This document shows, piece by piece, positions 25,019 to 52,438 of a DNA stretch of 64,000 bases. Source of the stretch: Escherichia coli (GTDB lineage Bacteria > Pseudomonadota > Gammaproteobacteria > Enterobacterales > Enterobacteriaceae); assembly GCF_009931435.1 (NCBI RefSeq), contig NZ_CP043414.1; one strand, written 5' to 3'. Both the position numbers and the translations under genes were made by a program. How positions within the stretch are numbered: position 1 is the first letter of the stretch; each line of letters begins with the position of its first letter. The notes under the pieces were generated by a model that searched no databases, had not been told where the DNA came from, and was given only the letters and a program-made list of their open reading frames with translations.

Positions 25019-25381
25019 TGGTGGAGCTGGCGGGAGTTGAACCCGCGTCCGAAATTCCTACATCCTCGGTACTACATGCTTAGTCAGTCTTTACATTCGC
25101 TTGCCAGCTGCGGACGGACACGCCACTAACAAACTAGCCTGATTAAGTTTTAACGCTTCAACCCCAGGCAGGGCTTCCACGCGATCTCTTTTGGGTTTGA
25201 CCTCTCTTGATCCCCGTCCTAAGAGCGGAGGCTAGGGAGAGAGGGCTCTAAGCAGGTTATTAAGCTGCTAAAGCGTAGTTTTCGTCGTTTGCGACTATTT
25301 TTTGCGGCTTTTTACGAGGCCAACCGCCCCTCGGCATGCACCTTGGGTTTCGCAAATCCCGTCGAATCCAGAATCAGCCCC
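25019..25381 (-). ncRNA. ssrA: tmRNA (SsrA), 363 nt
   Basis: Reverse complement reads GGGGCUGAUUCUGGAUUCGACGGG ... GCAAACGACGAAAACUACGCUUUAGCAGCUUAA (tag reading frame) ... GGUUCAACUCCCGCCAGCUCCACCA. Confidence 0.97.
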
Positions 25382-41959: not shown

Positions 41960-43120
41960 TTATGCCGGATCGACTGGTACCACATTCTCGCTTGGGTAAC
42001 AGCCCAGGACTTTCATCGAGCGAGTGATTTCACCTAGCTCTTTCAACGCCTGTTGCATTTCCGCTGATTCCAGATTGGCCTGAATATCCAGATAAAACAT
42101 CTCTTCCCACGGGTTTCCGTGAATCGGGCGTGATTCCAGACGGGTCATAATCAGATTGTGGTTGCGCAGTACCAGCAACGCTTCAACCAGCGCACCAGCT
42201 TGTTGTCCGGTCGCCATTAACAACGTCGTTTTCGCCGGAACCTGGTCAGAAACGTTAATGGCTTTACGTGCCAACACCACAAATCGGGTGAAGTTTTGTC
42301 GCTGATTCGCTTCAATATGCTCCAGTACCTGCAAACCGTACAAAGTGCCGCCAGCTTCGCTTCCCAACGCAGCAACATGCGGTGATTTTGCCTGTGCAAC
42401 CTTTTCCATTGCCGCAGACGTACTTTCGGTATATTCAATCTTCCAGTGCGGATAACGATTAAGGAATTTGCTGCATTGCTGGAATGGCTGCGGATGGCTG
42501 TAGACCGTATTAATGGTGGATAAATCAGTAGTGCCGGAGACCAACAAACAATGATCGATAGTTAACGTCATCTCGCCAACAATCGACAAACTGGTATGTT
42601 GCAGCAGATCGTAAACGTCGTTTATGGCACCGGAGCTGGTATTTTCAATCGGTACGACGGCATAGTCGGCCTGGCCGGTTTCCACCTGATTAAAAATATC
42701 GGCAAATTTGGCGCAGCCACTTTCAATGAATTGCTCAAAGTGACGCGCAGCGTACTGACGAGCGGCAAGATGTGAATAGGAGCCTTTGGGGCCGAGAAAA
42801 GCGATGCGTGCTGAGTGCGGATTAATTTTATTGAGATGTTGCTGGAGCAGTGCCTGCTGAGTTAATACGGAATCTTCAATGATGAGTTGGAACAGGCGAG
42901 TAATGTAATGGGCGTCCAGATGGTGCACTTTACCGAGCGTAATTAATCTTTCCAGCAAATCGCGTTCGCGATCAATATCACGTACCGGGCGATGAGAGAG
43001 CAGTTTGGCTTTTCCCACCTCGACGGCCAGTTCGCGCCGCTCTGCCAGTAATGCTAATAATTTTTCATCCAGCGCGCTGATTTTCTCTCGCAGCGCCAGT
43101 AACGGGTTTTCCGATGTCAT
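41960..43120 (-). CDS. pheA: Chorismate mutase / prephenate dehydratase (PheA)
   Basis: 386-aa product [40 protein letters not shown]... Confidence 0.97.
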
Positions 43121-43141: not shown

Positions 43142-43172
43142 ATAAAAAAGGCCCCCCGGTTTGGGAGGCCTT
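43142..43172 (-). terminator. pheL-pheA attenuator terminator
   Basis: GC hairpin plus U-tract (minus strand: ggcctcccaaaccggggggcc ttttttatt) between pheL and pheA. Confidence 0.8.
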
Positions 43173-43218
43173 ATTGTTCGTCTTCGCATTCTGTTTCACA
43201 CGACGAAACGCCTCCCAT

Positions 43219-43266
43219 TCAGGGGAAGGTAAAAAAGAATGCGAAGAAAAACGGCGTGTGTTTCAT
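43219..43266 (-). CDS. pheL: pheA leader peptide PheL (MKHTPFFFAFFFTFP)
   Basis: 15-codon ORF with seven Phe codons immediately upstream of the attenuator. Confidence 0.9.
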   Translation of the reverse strand: MKHTPFFFAFFFTFP

Positions 43267-43349
43267 GTTTGTTTCCTTAGGTGACTTCAGTACAGTACCC
43301 GTACTGTTTTCTCGCTGTCAACAAAAAACGCGCCCGAAGGTGCGTTGTA

Positions 43350-43433: not shown

Positions 43434-44456
43434 TTATGTGGATGAAATGTGGATGCCTCCTTTTAACGGATTAAGTGAAATTGCATCCTGGAGGAAATCA
43501 GGAGCGAGGTGCGCATAGGTCATAGTTTGCTGGATCGTGGCGTGCCCCATAATTCGCTGGAGCGTAAGTATATTTCCTCCATTAATCATAAAGTGAGCAG
43601 CAAAGGTATGGCGTAGAACATGTACAGCCTGTCCTTTTGGTAGGTCTGGCTTAACACTGCGAAGCACCTTGCGATATTCCTCATAATTGACGTCAAACAA
43701 AAGGCCGGATTTCTTTGTTTTGATCTCACTAACAACTTCATCAGAGACAGGAATAATTCGAACTTTTCCGTTTTTAGTTTTGTTAAACGTCACGCGATTA
43801 TTGATGATGTGTTCCGCGCGCAGATTTTTCGCTTCTCCCCATCTCGCCCCAGTACTGAGACAAAGTAGCGTAATCCGCCGGGCATCACCGCTTACTGCAT
43901 CCAGTAATTTGGCGATTTCTTCCATGGTGAGATACGTCATTTCGGGTGATTTTCGTTTCAAAGAGGGGAGGGCGCGGAGCGGATTTTCTCCGTGAAATTC
44001 CCCGGCATTTGCCAGGAGTGTAAACATTCCTCCGAGATCCGACTCATCACGCCGAACAGTAGACTCTTTTACTCCCAAAGATAAACGGGAGCTTCGATAA
44101 GCGGCCATGAAACGAGCATTAATCTGGCTAACCCTTGGATCATTCATTTCTTTGATGATTTTTTTCAACCTGGTTAGAACGCCGTTAGCATATGGCTTAT
44201 TGCGTCCACCCAATTCCCACCATAACGGAAGCAGATCTGAGAGATGACGTTGCTCTGTTGGCTTTTCAAGCCATTCCTTATCGTGCATGTGGCTGAGAAC
44301 ATAACGCTCAAAGGCCACTGCATCTGCCTTTTTCTTAAAAATCCGCTGAATCCGACGTCCACTTCGGCCACGCGGTCTAACATCCACTTTATACCGTCCA
44401 CCATCGAGCGCTTTAATTGCCATTGGCAAGCCCTCCGGTGAAACGAGGAAAGACAT
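43434..44456 (-). CDS. int: Phage tyrosine integrase (P2-type)
   Basis: 340 aa; catalytic region ...HVLRHTFAAHFMINGGNILTLQRIMGHATIQQTMTYAHL (R-H-x-x-R...Y). Confidence 0.9.
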   Translation of the reverse strand: MSFLVSPEGLPMAIKALDGGRYKVDVRPRGRSGRRIQRIFKKKADAVAFERYVLSHMHDKEWLEKPTEQRHLSDLLPLWWELGGRNKPYANGVLTRLKKIIKEMNDPRVSQINARFMAAYRSSRLSLGVKESTVRRDESDLGGMFTLLANAGEFHGENPLRALPSLKRKSPEMTYLTMEEIAKLLDAVSGDARRITLLCLSTGARWGEAKNLRAEHIINNRVTFNKTKNGKVRIIPVSDEVVSEIKTKKSGLLFDVNYEEYRKVLRSVKPDLPKGQAVHVLRHTFAAHFMINGGNILTLQRIMGHATIQQTMTYAHLAPDFLQDAISLNPLKGGIHISST

Positions 44457-44489: not shown

Positions 44490-44792
44490 TTAGCCAATTT
44501 TCCTTTCGGATGGGGGTAAGTCCGTTGGCTCTTGCCCATAGTGTGCGAGAGCCGGAGCTATCTGCCCGGATTCAGGCGCAATTTTCCCAGTCATAAACCA
44601 CAACGCATATTTCTCAAATCTGGGGTTGTTTAGTATTTGCTCAATTACTTCAGCATTAGGGATAGTTTTACCGCTTTCATATCTCCACAGAGCATCACGG
44701 TTTAAACCAAGCATTTTTGCTGTATCCGGGAGGCTAGTAAGTCTCTCGCTTTCACGCATGATTTTTATGCGCTCTCCAATAGTCATACGCAT
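44490..44792 (-). CDS. Phage immunity repressor (C/CI-like, XRE-type HTH)
   Basis: Product MRMTIGERIKIMRESERLTSLPDTAKMLGLNRDALWRYESGKT; divergent from the cox-like gene. Confidence 0.75.
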   Translation of the reverse strand: MRMTIGERIKIMRESERLTSLPDTAKMLGLNRDALWRYESGKTIPNAEVIEQILNNPRFEKYALWFMTGKIAPESGQIAPALAHYGQEPTDLPPSERKIG

Positions 44793-44887
44793 GTTGCAAT
44801 TCTCCAACGTCTGTATTAATGTTTATACAAATGAGTTTGATTTGGGGCATCCGTCGCAAGAAATACCCCAAACAGGGAGATTATCAC
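44793..44887. promoter_or_regulatory. Lysis-lysogeny switch region (face-to-face repressor and early promoters expected)
   Basis: ~95-bp gap between divergent repressor and cox-like genes, as in P2/186. Confidence 0.5.
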
Positions 44888-47537: not shown

Positions 47538-47750
47538 ATGAACAAAAAGACCTGGTTTCGCGCATACATGTGGGCGCTGGTATGCGTCCTCGTTTCTCTC
47601 ATTCTGTATGTGGGGCTACTTCCCAGAATGATTTCATCAGACAGCTCCTTCCTGGTATTGCTGGGCATTTTTGTCGCCTTGCTGTACCCGGCGGGCGTTG
47701 TTCGCTTTTTCAGTAACTACATCAAAGCAATTATGGAAACCAAACAATGA
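47538..47750 (+). CDS. Small membrane protein (70 aa, two hydrophobic helices)
   Basis: WALVCVLVSLILYVGLL and FLVLLGIFVALLYPAGVV segments; stop overlaps next start. Confidence 0.5.
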   Translation: MNKKTWFRAYMWALVCVLVSLILYVGLLPRMISSDSSFLVLLGIFVALLYPAGVVRFFSNYIKAIMETKQ

Positions 47751-48571
47751 AAAAACTATTACCACTCATCCCTCTCCTGATGACCACACTTCTGGTTGGC
47801 TGTGACCGCGTGGAGCCGGGCAATGTAGGCATCAAAGTCAACAAACTGGGCGACGATAAAGGCGTCGGTGAAGTAGTTGGCGTTGGCCGCTACTGGACAG
47901 GCTGGAATACAGAGGTTTACATCTTCCCGACTTTCAAACAAATGAAGACTTACGATGAGCCGTTCAACTTCCAGATGAGTGACGGCACAACCATCGGCTA
48001 TCACATCGGCGTGGCCTACAAAGTTGATCCATCCAAAGTTACCACTGTGTTTCAGACCTACCGCAAAGGCGTGGATGACATTACCGACACTGACCTGCGC
48101 CAGAAGATCGCCGATGCACTCAACCGACTGGCCAGCAAAATGACCACCGATAAGTTTATCGACGGTGGCAAGTCTGAACTGCTGGATTCAGCACTTAAAG
48201 ACATTCAGTCAGAAATGACACCTATCGGCATTCAGGTCATGAGCCTCTCTTATGTCGGTAAACCGGAATATCCGCCAACCGTTATCGACAGCATTAACGC
48301 CAAAGTCACGGCAAACCAGAAAACCCTGCAACGCGAACAGGAAGTCAAGCAACGCGAAGCAGAAGCCAACATGTTGCGCGCAGAAGCTGCCGGACAGGCT
48401 GATGCCATTCGCACAAAAGCCCAGGCTGAAGCCGACGCCATTCGTTTACGCGGTGAAGCTCTGCGCCAGAATCCCGGCGTTATGGAGCTGGAAGCAATCA
48501 ACAAATGGAACGGCACGCTGCCGCAATACATGACCAGCAACACCGCTGTTCCGTTTGTTCCGGTGAAGTAA
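47747..48571 (+). CDS. SPFH/band-7 (prohibitin/HflC-like) domain lipoprotein
   Basis: Lipobox LLVGC; central band-7-like region; C-terminal Ala/Glu/Gln-rich coiled coil (REQEVKQREAEANMLRAEAAGQADAIRTKAQAEADAIR). Confidence 0.65.
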   Translation: MKKLLPLIPLLMTTLLVGCDRVEPGNVGIKVNKLGDDKGVGEVVGVGRYWTGWNTEVYIFPTFKQMKTYDEPFNFQMSDGTTIGYHIGVAYKVDPSKVTTVFQTYRKGVDDITDTDLRQKIADALNRLASKMTTDKFIDGGKSELLDSALKDIQSEMTPIGIQVMSLSYVGKPEYPPTVIDSINAKVTANQKTLQREQEVKQREAEANMLRAEAAGQADAIRTKAQAEADAIRLRGEALRQNPGVMELEAINKWNGTLPQYMTSNTAVPFVPVK

Positions 48572-48577
48572 TTAAAC

Positions 48578-48623
48578 CCGGCCAGTGAAAATCGCTGGCC
48601 GGAGCAGTATCAGGATTTTTTTT
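48578..48623 (+). terminator. Hairpin (ccggccag-N9-ctggccgg) with distal T8 tract after the SPFH gene
   Basis: 8-bp perfect stem; U-tract starts 13 nt after the stem so terminator function is uncertain. Confidence 0.4.
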
Positions 48624-48741
48624 AGTATGCCGTTCTCACAAAAAAACCGCTTGCCATGCCGCAATCAGTCAGGTTACATTTCCGCTGCACCTCATAAAAC
48701 GGGTGCCGGGTTTCGCAGCCTGCTGACAACCAAAGCGCACA

Positions 48742-48761
48742 ACCGCGCCAGCGGTTTTTTT
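48742..48761 (+). terminator. Rho-independent terminator (accgc-gcca-gcggt + T7) in a non-coding gap
   Basis: Stem, tetraloop and U-tract; flanked by cgcaca/tgtgcg outer complement. Confidence 0.55.
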
Positions 48762-48802
48762 GTGCGTACTGTATTGCCACGTCTTTTTCGCACACGAATT
48801 AT

Positions 48803-48878
48803 GGCGGGGCGTACGGGGCCGACTTCGGTCGGGCCGGGTTCTTTGGTTGCCGGTACTGCGAACCCCGTACGTCTCGCC
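48803..48878 (+). ncRNA. Candidate structured RNA: 16-bp stem (14 Watson-Crick + 2 G-U on the plus-strand transcript) enclosing a UUCG-tetraloop hairpin
   Basis: ggcggggcgtacgggg pairs with ccccgtacgtctcgcc; inner ccgac-TTCG-gtcgg; the two G-U pairs would be C-A mismatches on the opposite strand. Confidence 0.35.
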
Positions 48879-48940
48879 ACCCACAGTTTCGCAGCTCTGG
48901 ATGGTGAGTTTTCAAAACTTACAACCAAAGAGGCTACACC

Positions 48941-49171
48941 ATGGCAAACCGCAAACAGCACCGCGCTATCGCGGAGCGTCGTCACATCCAGACTGAAATC
49001 AACCGCAGACTTTCCCGCGCATTCCGCGTCGCTAAAATCATGCACATCAATATGCTGCATGAGCGTAGCTGCGAACTTTCAAACCTCTACTCATCCGCTG
49101 TTTTCAGTTATCTGGCGGATGATCTGCGCGAGCTTCAGCAGCTCATCCAGCAGCAAAACAAACTCCATTAA
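48941..49171 (+). CDS. Hypothetical small basic protein (76 aa)
   Basis: ORF preceding the replication gene. Confidence 0.4.
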   Translation: MANRKQHRAIAERRHIQTEINRRLSRAFRVAKIMHINMLHERSCELSNLYSSAVFSYLADDLRELQQLIQQQNKLH

Positions 49172-49243
49172 TTCCTGTTCCGGGCCTTTCCTGCACCTTG
49201 CGGCGGGAGGCCTTCGCACATCTGTAACAAGAGGATTGCCGCA

Positions 49244-49609
49244 ATGATTCTCGCCAACGACTTTCTTGAATACCTGCTCAACACAGAGCGTGATCTTGCC
49301 GCTCGCGTGCGTGATCGTTATGACATGTACCTGAAATCCCTGCCTGTACCGCAGCTCGCTGACGGAAAGATTGTTATTGATGGTCGCTACATGATTGACA
49401 GCCACGAGGGAAATTACAGGCTTTCCCGCATTGAAGGTGGCACCCCGTCCGTTATTGGCATTTACCAGCGCCCATCCTCTGCAATCGTCGATGTGATTGC
49501 CGACAGCATCCGCATCACACATCGCCATGCCGACACAGAAGACACCGTGCTGGAAATTCAGCGGCTGGCTACAGTCTGCCGCGACACCCTGAATGGCATG
49601 ACGAAGTAA
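49244..49609 (+). CDS. Hypothetical phage protein (121 aa)
   Basis: ORF immediately upstream of rep. Confidence 0.5.
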   Translation: MILANDFLEYLLNTERDLAARVRDRYDMYLKSLPVPQLADGKIVIDGRYMIDSHEGNYRLSRIEGGTPSVIGIYQRPSSAIVDVIADSIRITHRHADTEDTVLEIQRLATVCRDTLNGMTK

Positions 49610-49615
49610 ATCACT

Positions 49616-52438
49616 ATGACGGCAGAGTACATCAGGGACTGGCAACAACCGCGCCACGCAGTGGGGCGTGAAGGAACGGGGATCCCCGCTCCTGAATCCG
49701 CGCTTTCCTCCTGGCTGGATGCCTACCGGGTAGAGAACGAGCGCCGCCAGGAAATGGCTGATGCGGCGTTCTCCGCCACGCCGCTGGGCAACCTGATTAA
49801 TAAAAGCCTGGACGCACAGGAAAAACAGGACAAAACCATCACACTGGCAGGAGACGCCAGAAAACAGGCACGCGGCGCAGTGGATGAAGCCATGACCTCG
49901 CTGCGCCTGCTGCCGTCCTATCTGCGCGATCCGCTTATTCGCCACCTCTCCTTCCTGCGCAAAAAACAGGAAGCCGATCGCCGGAAAGGCAAAAAGAGCT
50001 GGCAGGCGGAACGCTATGCACGCGGAACCCTGCGCAAAATATTCGAACGTCTGGACCGCACCGATCACCGCTGGCTGACACCGGGTTATCGCTCCCTTGC
50101 CGGACGCGAACGCCTGGACGATTTGCTTTACCTGCCGCAGCTCAACAAACACCAGATACAGACGCTGGCCACCATGACGGCGGCGATGTTCAGCAGCACC
50201 TTCGAAAAACTCTGCGATGGCTTTGGCGCGACTGATGGCGAACTGACCATGGATGTAACGCTGAAGGCGTATCAGATGCTGGCCCGCATGGCGTTACACC
50301 TGCACGCCATGCCTCCACATTATGACGCACTGACAACAGACAAAGACCGGAGGAACGAACCGGACACAGAGCTGCTGCCGGGCGCAATCCTTCGCCTGAC
50401 CTGTGCGGAATGGTGGAAACGCAAACTGTGGCTGTTACGTTGCGAGTGGCGGGAAGAACAACTCCGCGCCGCCTGTCTGGTTTCCAGAAAAACATCGCCC
50501 TATCTGAGCCAGGACGCGTTAAGCGAGTTTCGCGCACAGCGCGAGAAAACACGCGATTTCCTGAAAAGTTTCATGCTGGAAAACGAAGACGGGTTCACGA
50601 TTGATCTCGAGACAGTGTATTACGCGGGAGTAAGTAACCCGGTTCACCGTAAGGCAGAAATGATGGCCACCATGAAGGGACTGGAACTTCTGGCCGAAGC
50701 CCGTGGCGACAGAGCGGTGTTTCTGACTGTCACCTGCCCGTCAAAATACCACGCAACAACGGAGAACGGTCATCCGAACCCCAAATGGAACGGGGCCACC
50801 ATGCGCGACTCCAGCGATTACCTGGTTAACACGTTTTTTGCGGCGGTCCGCAAAAAACTGAACCGCGACGGCCTGCGCTGGTATGGCATCCGCACGGTGG
50901 AGCCTCACCATGACGGCACCGTGCACTGGCATATGATGGTCTTTGCTCATCCGGAAGAAATCGACAGCATCGTGGCCATCACCCGCGATATTGCCATTCA
51001 GGAAGACCGCCACGAGCTGGGCAATGATATTACTCCGCGCTTTAAAGTGGAGTATGTCGACGGCTCAAAAGGCACACCAACCAGCTATATCGCGACCTAC
51101 ATCGGGAAAAACCTGGACAGCCGCGCCGTGGATGGCATCGACCCGAAAACGGGCAAACCACGCGTTGACCACGAAACCGGAAAGTCAATGGCCGAGAGCG
51201 TGGAACGCGCCATCGGCTGGGCGCGCCTTCACCGTGTCCGCCAGTTCCAGTTCTTTGGTATCCCCTCCCGTCAGGTGTGGCGTGAACTGCGTCGCCTTGC
51301 CAGCCAGATGGCACGCAACCCGGAAGGCCCGCAACAGCTGAAGGATGACGCAATGGATGCGGTACTCGCTGCCGCTGATGCCGGATGTTTTGCCACCTAC
51401 ATAGAGAAACAGGGCGGCGTTCTTGTTCCACGCAAAGACTACCTGATTCGCACCGCCTACGACCTCGCAGATGAGCTGAACGATTACGGCGAACAGAGCG
51501 TACAGATTTACGGGATCTGGTCGCCACTCATCGGGGAATCCTCCCGTGTGTGCACGCATCCGGATAACTGGAAGCTGGTAAGACGTAAACCGGAAACGGA
51601 AGACAGCGCCCGCGAAAATGGTTTTGACCTTCAGGGCGGCCCTGCCGCCCCTTGGACTCGTGGCAATAACTGTCCCCGTGTACAGGAAACGGACAACAAC
51701 GGGACAGAACAGCCGGAAGAACGGCCAGCACCGTGGCCGCAGCTTCCTGACAGCGTTGACGTGAATGAATGGATGCGCTCACTGAAACGGCACGAACGCC
51801 GGGCGCTGATGCGTTCGCTGCGTGACAAACAGGCAAAAAACAGCAGTGATGAAATGCAGAACTGGACACAGAGCCGCAAACAGCCACGGCCTTTGCCTGA
51901 TAACCACGAGTTACTCGCTAAAGAATGGCGGGAGTCTGCTGAATCTCTCGGCCTGCATATTGGTGAACAGCAGATGCAGCACCTGTTACGGGGCGGCAGT
52001 CTGTACGTTGACGGCAGCATCATTGCACCGCAGGGATTTGAAATTGTACGCAAACCGGATACCCGCCCGGACAGCCGAATCACGCAGCTCTGGCAGCGCC
52101 TGAGCCGTAATCACGGCGTAAGCAGCACGGGGATCCGCCATAACCCGGTCGCCAGCTATCTGGAACAGCTGGGGGCATCAGACCCCGAAGCCGCCGCACG
52201 CCTGGCATCCACACTTCAGCAGGACCAGAACACCATGAAAACCCCCGTTACCGTGCTTTCTGACATGCTGCGCGCCATCCGTGACGCAGAGCACGCACAG
52301 AGAATCAGTGAAACAACTGAACGCGCCCGCCGCAAAGCAGACCTGCTGCGGGGTGGCCTGACCAGTGGAAACAAAAAACAGACAAAAACAGGATTCACAA
52401 ATCCCGTAAATGAGCAAAAAACGCGCCGTGATATATGA
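49616..52438 (+). CDS. Phage replication initiation protein (P2 gpA-family rolling-circle endonuclease), 940 aa
   Basis: HUH-type motif region VEPHHDGTVHWHMMVF; position after the early operon. Confidence 0.8.
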   Translation: MTAEYIRDWQQPRHAVGREGTGIPAPESALSSWLDAYRVENERRQEMADAAFSATPLGNLINKSLDAQEKQDKTITLAGDARKQARGAVDEAMTSLRLLPSYLRDPLIRHLSFLRKKQEADRRKGKKSWQAERYARGTLRKIFERLDRTDHRWLTPGYRSLAGRERLDDLLYLPQLNKHQIQTLATMTAAMFSSTFEKLCDGFGATDGELTMDVTLKAYQMLARMALHLHAMPPHYDALTTDKDRRNEPDTELLPGAILRLTCAEWWKRKLWLLRCEWREEQLRAACLVSRKTSPYLSQDALSEFRAQREKTRDFLKSFMLENEDGFTIDLETVYYAGVSNPVHRKAEMMATMKGLELLAEARGDRAVFLTVTCPSKYHATTENGHPNPKWNGATMRDSSDYLVNTFFAAVRKKLNRDGLRWYGIRTVEPHHDGTVHWHMMVFAHPEEIDSIVAITRDIAIQEDRHELGNDITPRFKVEYVDGSKGTPTSYIATYIGKNLDSRAVDGIDPKTGKPRVDHETGKSMAESVERAIGWARLHRVRQFQFFGIPSRQVWRELRRLASQMARNPEGPQQLKDDAMDAVLAAADAGCFATYIEKQGGVLVPRKDYLIRTAYDLADELNDYGEQSVQIYGIWSPLIGESSRVCTHPDNWKLVRRKPETEDSARENGFDLQGGPAAPWTRGNNCPRVQETDNNGTEQPEERPAPWPQLPDSVDVNEWMRSLKRHERRALMRSLRDKQAKNSSDEMQNWTQSRKQPRPLPDNHELLAKEWRESAESLGLHIGEQQMQHLLRGGSLYVDGSIIAPQGFEIVRKPDTRPDSRITQLWQRLSRNHGVSSTGIRHNPVASYLEQLGASDPEAAARLASTLQQDQNTMKTPVTVLSDMLRAIRDAEHAQRISETTERARRKADLLRGGLTSGNKKQTKTGFTNPVNEQKTRRDI

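Follow-up and report, generated by a model that had tools for sequence, protein, structure and literature searches.

The stretch of DNA analysed here (the window, 64,000 nt in length) is a piece of Escherichia coli chromosome with a P2-family prophage adjoining pheA. Just ahead of the replication genes of this prophage lies a segment for which an initial annotation, made from the letters alone, had described a long stem around a UUCG hairpin, and for which it had offered several functions, among them an antisense immunity RNA and a replication or packaging cis element. We asked what kind of element this is, from which strand it is read, and which genes it would control. The structured segment is a known type of phage regulatory RNA, namely a C4/CI antisense immunity RNA with an IsrK/SeqA-like leader, and the antisense immunity RNA was the right choice among the functions offered: the Rfam matches, the covariation of the stems and the antisense sites described below all point to it.

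The prophage and the setting of the segment

The early region of the prophage is ~94% identical to phage P88 (Peduoviridae, Xuanwuvirus), and at the sequence level we regard the prophage as a P88-like member of the P2 family. The locus itself is common: of 5426 complete E. coli genomes, about a quarter (1282) carry it. The features on which the following sections draw are collected in Table 1.

Table 1. Features of the RNA locus and its surroundings, in order along the window.
Feature	Position	Strand	Basis and remarks
pheA	41960-43120		
Phe leader	43142-43267		
Integrase	43434-44456	-	
P2-type C immunity repressor	44490-44807	-	52% identical to P2 C, E 4e-34; Thr67 and Ile70 conserved
SPFH-domain lipoprotein gene	47747-48571		Flanks the RNA segment upstream
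Predicted cassette promoter, equivalent of P4 P_LE / P_isrK	48651-48680	+	TTGCCA (48651-56), 18 nt, TACATT (48675-80); consensus scan
IsrK/SeqA-like leader RNA	48687-48761	+	Two hairpins, then the intrinsic terminator; Rfam RF01394
a1 target	48712-48718	+	TTCGCAG; loop of CGGG...CCUG hairpin; exact a' complement, 7/7 nt
b1 target	48727-48735	+	CAACCAAAG; 9-nt complement of hairpin-2 loop
Intrinsic terminator	48741-48761	+	AACCGC-GCCA-GCGGTT and T-run; terminator scan; 3' hairpin of isrK model
C4/CI-type antisense RNA core	48802-48879	+	Rfam RF01695 and covariation; Rfam match spans 48797-48884
b' antisense element	48838-48849	+	Hairpin-2 loop GUUCUUUGGUUG; complementary to b1 (9 nt) and b2 (10 nt)
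a' antisense element	48856-48862	+	CUGCGAA in single-stranded junction; complementary to a1 and a2
Alternative hairpin	48873-48908	+	Outer-stem 3' strand CUCGCCA with UGGUGAG (48902-48908); a2 in loop
a2 target	48888-48894	+	TTCGCAG; a' complement, 7/7 nt
b2 target	48922-48931	+	CAACCAAAGA; 10-nt complement of b'; feature including Shine-Dalgarno extends to 48933
76-aa epsilon-like ORF	48941-49171	+	First gene after the RNA; PF25738, BLASTP to P4 epsilon
121-aa ORF	49244-49609	+	PHROG/annotation; downstream of 76-aa ORF
940-aa P2 gpA-type replication nickase	49616-52438	+	PHROG; 'replication endonuclease' annotation in homologs

The segment folds as a C4 antisense RNA on the plus strand

Inspection of the sequence showed that GGCGGGGCGTACGGGG (48803-48818) pairs with CCCCGTACGTCTCGCC (48863-48878), an arrangement of 76 nt end to end, and that an additional U48802-A48879 pair lengthens this outer stem to 17 bp (48802-48818 with 48863-48879), so that the stem already described from the letters is even longer than had been claimed. 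Its two non-Watson-Crick pairs, G48807·U48874 and G48809·U48872, are G·U on the plus strand and C·A on the minus strand, as the initial annotation had pointed out. The hairpin that it had placed inside the stem, CCGAC-UUCG-GUCGG (hairpin 1, 48819-48832), is likewise there; what it had overlooked is a second enclosed hairpin (hairpin 2, 48833-48854), built from GCCGG, a 12-nt loop and CCGGU and followed on its 3' side by an 8-nt single-stranded junction (48855-48862). The plus strand folds at -54.8 kcal/mol (z -3.46), a value equalled by none of 200 shuffles, as against -44.4 kcal/mol (z -1.84) for the minus strand, and the strand asymmetry of the fold is real.

The Rfam/Infernal scan that had been suggested as a check identified the family. 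The C4 antisense RNA model (RF01695) matched 48797-48884 on the plus strand over its full length (model positions 1-87) with 87.1 bits against a threshold of 45 (E 1.3e-16), and this was the one C4 match within the 64-kb window. Upstream of it, the isrK model (RF01394) matched 48687-48761, also on the plus strand and over its full length, with 65.9 bits against a threshold of 50, the 3' end of the match being the terminator. The c4-a1b1 model (RF03163), at 20.5 bits, fell below its threshold of 46.7; this match overlaps that of isrK, by which the same bases are covered. Above-threshold C4 and isrK matches were found on the plus strand only, which, together with the stem covariation and the co-varying antisense sites, bears out the earlier proposal of an RNA read from that strand. 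On the basis of its long closing stem enclosing two hairpins, which is supported by covariation, we assign the element to the C4 antisense RNA family, in which it resembles the CI RNA of P4.

Covariation of the stems among homologs

We collected homologs with a pattern that fixed only the UUCG hairpin and one strand of hairpin 2, which returned 120 loci. About half of these pattern matches were unrelated GC-rich sequence and were excluded by demanding the enclosing stem, and this filter together with the removal of duplicates left 52 distinct homologs. When the structure of the window was imposed on a plain MAFFT alignment of these 52, the UUCG loop and one strand of hairpin 2 being fixed by the collection pattern, 92.7% of the cells were paired, compared with 36.8-48.9% when the partners were slid by 1-3 columns, and 191 cells had changed on both sides, compared with 20-46 in the slid controls. 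Compensatory changes were seen in 14 pairs, of which 10 belong to the 17 of the outer stem and 4 to the 5 of hairpin 1, G-U intermediates occurred among the covarying pairs, and none of 500 shuffles reached the observed pairing or covariation score. Helix 1 was only 88% paired, because the plain MAFFT alignment shifts the 3' strand of a subfamily with a 7-nt junction by one column. The stems therefore covary among the homologs, as the initial annotation, which had named covariation as a way to check the pairing, would have expected.

Promoter, leader and terminator

Immediately upstream of the leader we found a candidate promoter (Table 1); its predicted start, ~48687, coincides with the base at which the isrK match begins. 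In 33 of the 35 homologs that could be assessed, a TTGnnn/-10 pair recurred with its end 31-33 nt 5' of a1, despite otherwise divergent sequence. Two TTGCCA hexamers, at 48652 and 48774, had been put forward as possible -35 elements; the first in fact starts at 48651, and it alone belongs to this position-conserved promoter. The second, combined with AATTAT (48797-48802), was considered as a promoter for C4 and rejected: its start would fall within the stem, its -35 element reads TCGCCA in P88 and in the close relative L120, and the site is missing in other subfamilies. Consensus scanning and homolog comparison yielded no conserved promoter directly 5' of C4.

The intrinsic terminator placed by the initial annotation at 48742-48761 is present. 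It is not a separate feature, as had been assumed, and forms the 3' end of the IsrK/SeqA-like leader, which carries the upstream target sites. A T-run precedes C4 in 47 of 52 homologs. From its sequence, the terminator is predicted to end a short leader RNA, and since C4 sits behind it, the C4 precursor would require read-through. In the homolog alignment, C4 displays an acceptor-like stem followed by a near-invariant CCACC, features that, by analogy, are consistent with 5' processing by RNase P.

Antisense elements and their target sites

The single-stranded parts of the C4 fold are complementary to sites on both of its sides, so that each of two antisense elements, a' in the junction and b' in the loop of hairpin 2, has one target in the leader (a1, b1) and one downstream (a2, b2). 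The downstream b2 overlaps the Shine-Dalgarno sequence AAGAGG (48928-48933), which lies 7 nt before the ATG at 48941. The a-site duplex comprises 7 bp only. Among the 52 homologs, the a' 7-mer occurs in 27 variants that co-vary with their own targets, and the b' loop in 45 variants, each matching its own flanks. A cognate a-complement was found downstream in 48 of 52 homologs, compared with 1 of 2554 non-cognate combinations, and upstream (a1) in 47 of 52, compared with 19 of 2554; for the b sites, the median complementary run was 8 nt for cognate and 4-5 nt for non-cognate combinations (b1: 8 vs 5). The position of a2 is also constrained, falling inside the first 25 nt 3' of C4 in 48 of 52 homologs and mostly 6-12 nt downstream. 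Even between the window and P88, which are 92.5% identical here, there are matched differences at a and b in all three copies, a pattern that would be expected, by analogy, of heteroimmune antisense systems such as those of P1 and P7.

Two alternative pairings bear on how these sites are presented. The alternative hairpin at 48873-48908 and the C4 outer stem are mutually exclusive; an equivalent hairpin presenting a2 was obtained in local folds of 47 of 52 homologs, and it also appears in the minimum-energy fold of the read-through transcript. In that fold (48687-48950), a1 and b1 pair in cis with a' and b', and the C4 cloverleaf is lost.

Genes downstream of the RNA

The first downstream ORF begins 47-62 nt past C4 in 48 of 52 homologs. 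The family to which it belongs varies, being epsilon-like in the P88 group, a protein of 180-300 aa at several loci, and a ~64-aa protein in another group. In the window, the 76-aa product of this ORF matched the Pfam family Derepression (PF25738; E 6.9e-7, 29.4 bits) and phrog_3688 (E 3.5e-45), was 29% identical to P4 epsilon over 66 aa in BLASTP (E 1e-8), and is labelled 'derepression protein' in RefSeq and in P88. For the genes behind it (49244-52438), the PHROG matches were phrog_3237 and phrog_91, 'nicking at origin of replication'. Neither the 76-aa, 121-aa and 940-aa proteins nor the read-through ORF could be assigned to an NCBIfam family. The 121-aa ORF and the nickase gene are assigned to the same transcription unit as the 76-aa ORF and may be subject to polarity.

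Mutation of Thr67 or Ile70 of P2 C impairs binding by the P4 E protein (PMC2995052). The C repressor of the prophage, which shares 52% identity with P2 C and in which both residues are retained, is the presumed target of the epsilon-like protein; by inactivating it, the protein would probably act as an anti-repressor.

Proposed mechanism

Taken together, these results make it likely that the segment serves a P88-like prophage of the P2 family as a secondary immunity cassette based on RNA, homologous to P4 P_LE-seqA-cI-seqC and to P1/P7 immI (c4), in which C4 would block translation of the anti-repressor. By analogy with those systems, transcription, processing, repression, Rho polarity and the binding of the anti-repressor to the prophage C would proceed as follows. 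A constitutive promoter at 48651-48680 would initiate transcription at ~48687, and the majority of transcripts would end at the terminator (48741-48761), giving an IsrK/SeqA-like RNA of ~75 nt with a1 and b1. Transcripts that read through would hold the C4/CI fold (48802-48879), to be excised as a stable RNA of ~78 nt. P1 C4 and P4 CI RNA are processed by RNase P, and by analogy the 5' end of C4 might be generated in the same way; this route fits because of the conserved acceptor-like stem and the CCACC that follows it. On transcripts extending further, a' (CUGCGAA) and the b' loop (GUUCUUUGGUUG) would pair with a2 (48888-48894) and b2 (48922-48931), and this pairing would hide the Shine-Dalgarno sequence of the 76-aa epsilon-like gene and block its translation. 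The untranslated RNA would probably become a Rho substrate; as in P1 and P4, transcription would then end prematurely and the genes behind would be expressed less. The a1 and b1 copies of the leader would act as competitors for a' and b', either in cis or on the free short RNA, so that the ratio of leader to C4 would set the switch, as for IsrK in Gifsy-1. Once released from this block, the epsilon-like protein would probably inactivate the prophage C repressor. Points that weigh against this reading are the short a-site duplex, the c4-a1b1 score below threshold, the position of C4 behind an intrinsic terminator, and the results obtained on Gifsy-1.

Alternative readings

The study of Gifsy-1 assigns the roles differently: there the short leader activates rather than represses, and a CI-like terminator role of the C4-like RNA was not demonstrated (PMC4825925). 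Transferred to the window, this model would make the short IsrK-like leader the key regulator, which opens in trans a read-through mRNA locked in cis, with C4 serving mainly as the structural lock; the opened mRNA would allow translation of the anti-repressor and hence induction. We regard this as possible, though somewhat doubtful. The minimum-energy fold described above, in which a1/b1 pair with a'/b' at the expense of the cloverleaf, and the above-threshold isrK match are in its favor, as is the trans-activation by IsrK shown experimentally at the homologous Gifsy-1 locus (PMC4825925). However, the Gifsy-1 switch acts via translation of orf45, which ends beside anrP, whereas the ORF from the conserved AUG in the window has 148 codons and runs out of frame through the anti-repressor gene, and among the homologs the length of this ORF ranges from 14 to 335 codons. 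Being strictly conserved and covarying, the C4 cloverleaf and the a2/b2 sites over the ribosome-binding site instead suit a trans-acting repressor like those of P1 and P4. The two readings are mutually compatible. It is also conceivable, if unlikely, that the CI RNA of this helper-type prophage serves primarily to shut down incoming P4-like satellites, or phages sharing its a/b specificity, with self-regulation being secondary. Barquist et al. raised such an idea for lambdoid prophages (PMC3632133), the cassette is the immunity module of P4 and is absent from P2, and the a/b specificities are highly diversified, as the 27 a' and 45 b' variants attest. Against this, the window a' (CUGCGAA) and b' are unlike those of P4 (UUCUCAC and UAUCCUGUGAAG), both target copies lie in the prophage's own transcript with b2 on the ribosome-binding site of its own gene, and no satellite of the same specificity was found in the window, which has a single C4 match.

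A protein-coding origin of the signal has some appeal in the databases. The claim that no convincing ORF lies in the segment held in that no reading frame is conserved, but mechanical ORFs do overlap the RNA, among them one of 220 aa (48585-49247). In Pfam, the translation of 48585-49244 matches Phage_ASH (PF10554, E 3.2e-7); in PHROG, it matches several 'transcriptional regulator' families, with E values as low as 5.5e-18. RefSeq, too, places an 'ash family protein' pseudogene at this position, and from all this one might conclude that the segment codes for an Ash family protein or transcriptional regulator and that the stem is incidental. We consider this very improbable: besides the 14-335-codon range, the conserved AUG is absent from 6 of 52 homologs, 4 stop within the RNA, and the close relative L120 has 64 codons where the window has 148. 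Compensatory substitutions in helices and matched changes at three distant sites are not predicted by coding constraint, RefSeq itself marks the ash feature as incomplete, and the P88 annotation has a different ORF on the opposite strand. These protein families, Ash and the PHROG ones alike, probably arose by translation of a conserved RNA gene. Still less credible, to the point of being negligible, is a cis-acting DNA element, such as a replication origin or a packaging or recombination site, and the 'replication or packaging cis element' entertained at the outset found no support. The segment does lie just 5' of a replication gene, and its long inverted repeat could make a cruciform; yet the G·U pairs and fold energies are strand-specific, G-U intermediates occur in the covariation, the match is to an RNA covariance model, and the origin nick site of P2-type phages is inside gene A.

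Significance

The RNA family is already curated in Rfam and has been studied in P1, P7, P4 and Gifsy-1 (PMC3632133, PMC4825925, PMC12197685), and a literature search on P88/Xuanwuvirus returned no paper on this RNA. Both family and mechanism being long established, the locus is a well-resolved example and offers no new principle. Its main value lies in annotation, since loci of this kind are routinely labelled as protein ('ash family protein', 'transcriptional regulator', 'Rha protein') though they are an RNA switch. By this analysis, P88-like prophages of the P2 family stand out as possessing a second layer of immunity, made of RNA and placed ahead of an epsilon-type anti-repressor; this layer could explain the induction of such prophages and their interplay with P4-like satellites.

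The only aspect that we would call mildly new is the setting, in that a module of the satellite type, together with an epsilon homolog, resides in a P2-family phage of the helper type. We suggest, tentatively and with some reserve, that such a phage took up the P4 module (leader, CI RNA and epsilon) and turns it on itself, or else that it derepresses related P2-like prophages and P4-like satellites whose a/b codes match, or is immune to them. P2-type C repressors are normally non-inducible. If the suggestion is true, an RNA-gated epsilon-like anti-repressor would give a C repressor of this type an induction route set by the leader/C4 ratio, and the many a/b variants would amount to an RNA 'immunity code' common to helpers and satellites.

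Comparison with known systems

The closest counterpart is the cI region of P4, in which the Rfam models for C4, isrK and c4-a1b1 scored 74.9, 60.8 and 44.1 bits, respectively, the last just below its threshold of 46.7. These three matches have the same order and strand as in the window (c4-a1b1 being below threshold in both). The two loci also share a promoter right before the leader, an antisense RNA (seqB in P4) flanked on both sides by complementary copies of its targets (seqA and seqC in P4), and an epsilon-family derepression gene and then a replication gene after the RNA; in P4, the genes that come after the cI region are epsilon, ORF151, ORF106 and alpha. IsrK-C4 has been equated with seqA-CI of P4 (PMC3632133). 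An old P4 annotation, 'cI gene product (AA 1-137)', spans the RNA. The differences lie mostly in the setting. P4 is a satellite, whereas the element in the window is a full phage of the P2 family, equipped with a C repressor and Cox of its own; 36 nt separate the leader terminator from C4 in the window, compared with ~107 nt in P4; the window has a gpA nickase as its replication protein where P4 has the alpha primase; and the a/b specificities differ. No similarity was found between the 121-aa protein and P4 ORF151, and in the P4-like homologs that we sampled, a ~64-aa ORF came first after the RNA, where the window has its epsilon-like gene. The early region of P2, for its part, gave no C4 or isrK match in Rfam, and the window therefore presents a P4-type module (leader, CI RNA and epsilon) within a P2-type phage.

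The immI locus of P1 and P7 (c4-icd-ant) shares with the window the Rfam family and the fold, the a' and b' elements with targets before and after the RNA, the placement of the downstream target over a ribosome-binding site, and an anti-repressor as cargo. There, c4 blocks the ribosome-binding site of the ant mRNA, and immunity specificity shifts by matched a/b changes (PMC12197685), just as the a/b sites differ in matched fashion here. Unlike P1/P7, the window has a leader with a strong intrinsic terminator of the isrK type, its cargo is the 76-aa epsilon-like protein instead of Icd/Ant, and its primary repressor is of the P2 C type instead of P1 C1.

The IsrK-STnc1160/orf45-AnrP locus of Gifsy-1 resembles the window in having IsrK with a promoter and terminator, a C4-like stable RNA from read-through, and an anti-repressor gene (PMC4825925), and the cis pairing between leader and C4 predicted in the window is reminiscent of the inactive 'structure A' of the Gifsy-1 isrK locus (PMC4825925). 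A Hfq-associated IsrK acting in trans on its own read-through mRNA is known only for Gifsy-1 (PMC4825925). The window differs from Gifsy-1 in having neither an antQ partner nor a short ORF that, like orf45, ends where the cargo gene begins, and whereas Gifsy-1 is a lambdoid prophage with AnrP as its cargo, the window pairs the same kind of RNA with an epsilon-like protein in a P2-type prophage.

Antisense codes of closely related prophages

The a/b codes, that is, the matched sequences shared by the antisense elements of the C4 RNA and their upstream and downstream targets, were found to differ between near-identical P88-like prophages, here the window prophage and phage P88 (L002). The a code is altered (Table), the b loops differ by 2 nt, and these changes are matched in all three copies, which implies, as judged from sequence, that the window prophage and P88 would be heteroimmune at the RNA level.

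Table. Features of the cassette and its surroundings (window positions unless stated).
Feature	Position	Strand	Details
tmRNA (ssrA) gene	25019-25381	-	295.8 bits
SPFH/HflK-HflC-like lipoprotein gene	47747-48571		Weak HflC/HflK similarity; phrog_200 'lipoprotein'
Hairpin past SPFH stop codon	48573-48625		CCGGCCAG...CTGGCCGG
RNA locus labeled as protein	48585-49247; L001 6066-6329	+ (window)	'ash family protein' pseudogene, 'transcriptional regulator', 'Rha protein' (public records)
Region compared for a/b codes, window vs. P88	48640-48945; L002 4983-5290		a code: CUGCGAA vs. GUGGAAA (sequence comparison)
Second promoter-like site	48774-48802		TTGCCA, 17 nt, AATTAT; 9/12 match
Conserved alternative hairpin	48873-48908		a2 target in loop; stem uses C4 outer-stem 3′ strand
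ParM and partition protein genes	L001 9955-11230; window equivalent downstream of 52438		P88-like phages, immediately 3′ of replication gene

Structures and signals around C4

An equivalent of the alternative hairpin, which in unprocessed transcripts is mutually exclusive with the C4 fold, was present in 47 of the 52 homologs, and this predicted structure could act as a processing switch or aid target presentation. Upstream of it, the AATTAT of the second promoter-like site overlaps AAUUAUGG, the conserved 5′ flank of C4, and the predicted transcription start falls within the C4 stem; sequence comparison showed that the -35 hexamer of this site is not kept in P88.

The SPFH lipoprotein gene lies within the phage early operon, immediately 5′ of the cassette (the isrK leader RNA, C4 and its targets), and might conceivably be connected with control of the lysis-lysogeny decision through FtsH. 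The T-run of the hairpin past its stop codon comes only ~13 nt after the hairpin, and because our terminator scan did not call this hairpin as a terminator, transcription of the early operon may continue past it and enter the cassette from upstream.

Protein annotations and neighboring genes

Public records label the RNA locus as protein. Family searches with its translation returned matches to Pfam Phage_ASH (PF10554) and to PHROGs 6928, 995, 821 and 3960, which suggests that the conserved isrK/C4 RNA genes, read as if they were coding, may have given rise to these families as artefacts.

Elsewhere in the window, the tmRNA gene and pheA are 17 kb apart; ssrA is a common integration site of islands and prophages.

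At loci of other phage groups (L006, L039, L074, L118, L024, L037, L112 and others), the gene immediately 3′ of C4 encodes a protein of 180–300 aa, several of these beginning MQTAKVIPFQFD..., or, in another group, a ~64-aa protein (MATxLTxxHPxFxFxFAAVRR...). The ParM and partition protein genes of the P88-like phages, for their part, hint at a P2-family phage with plasmid-like maintenance functions.
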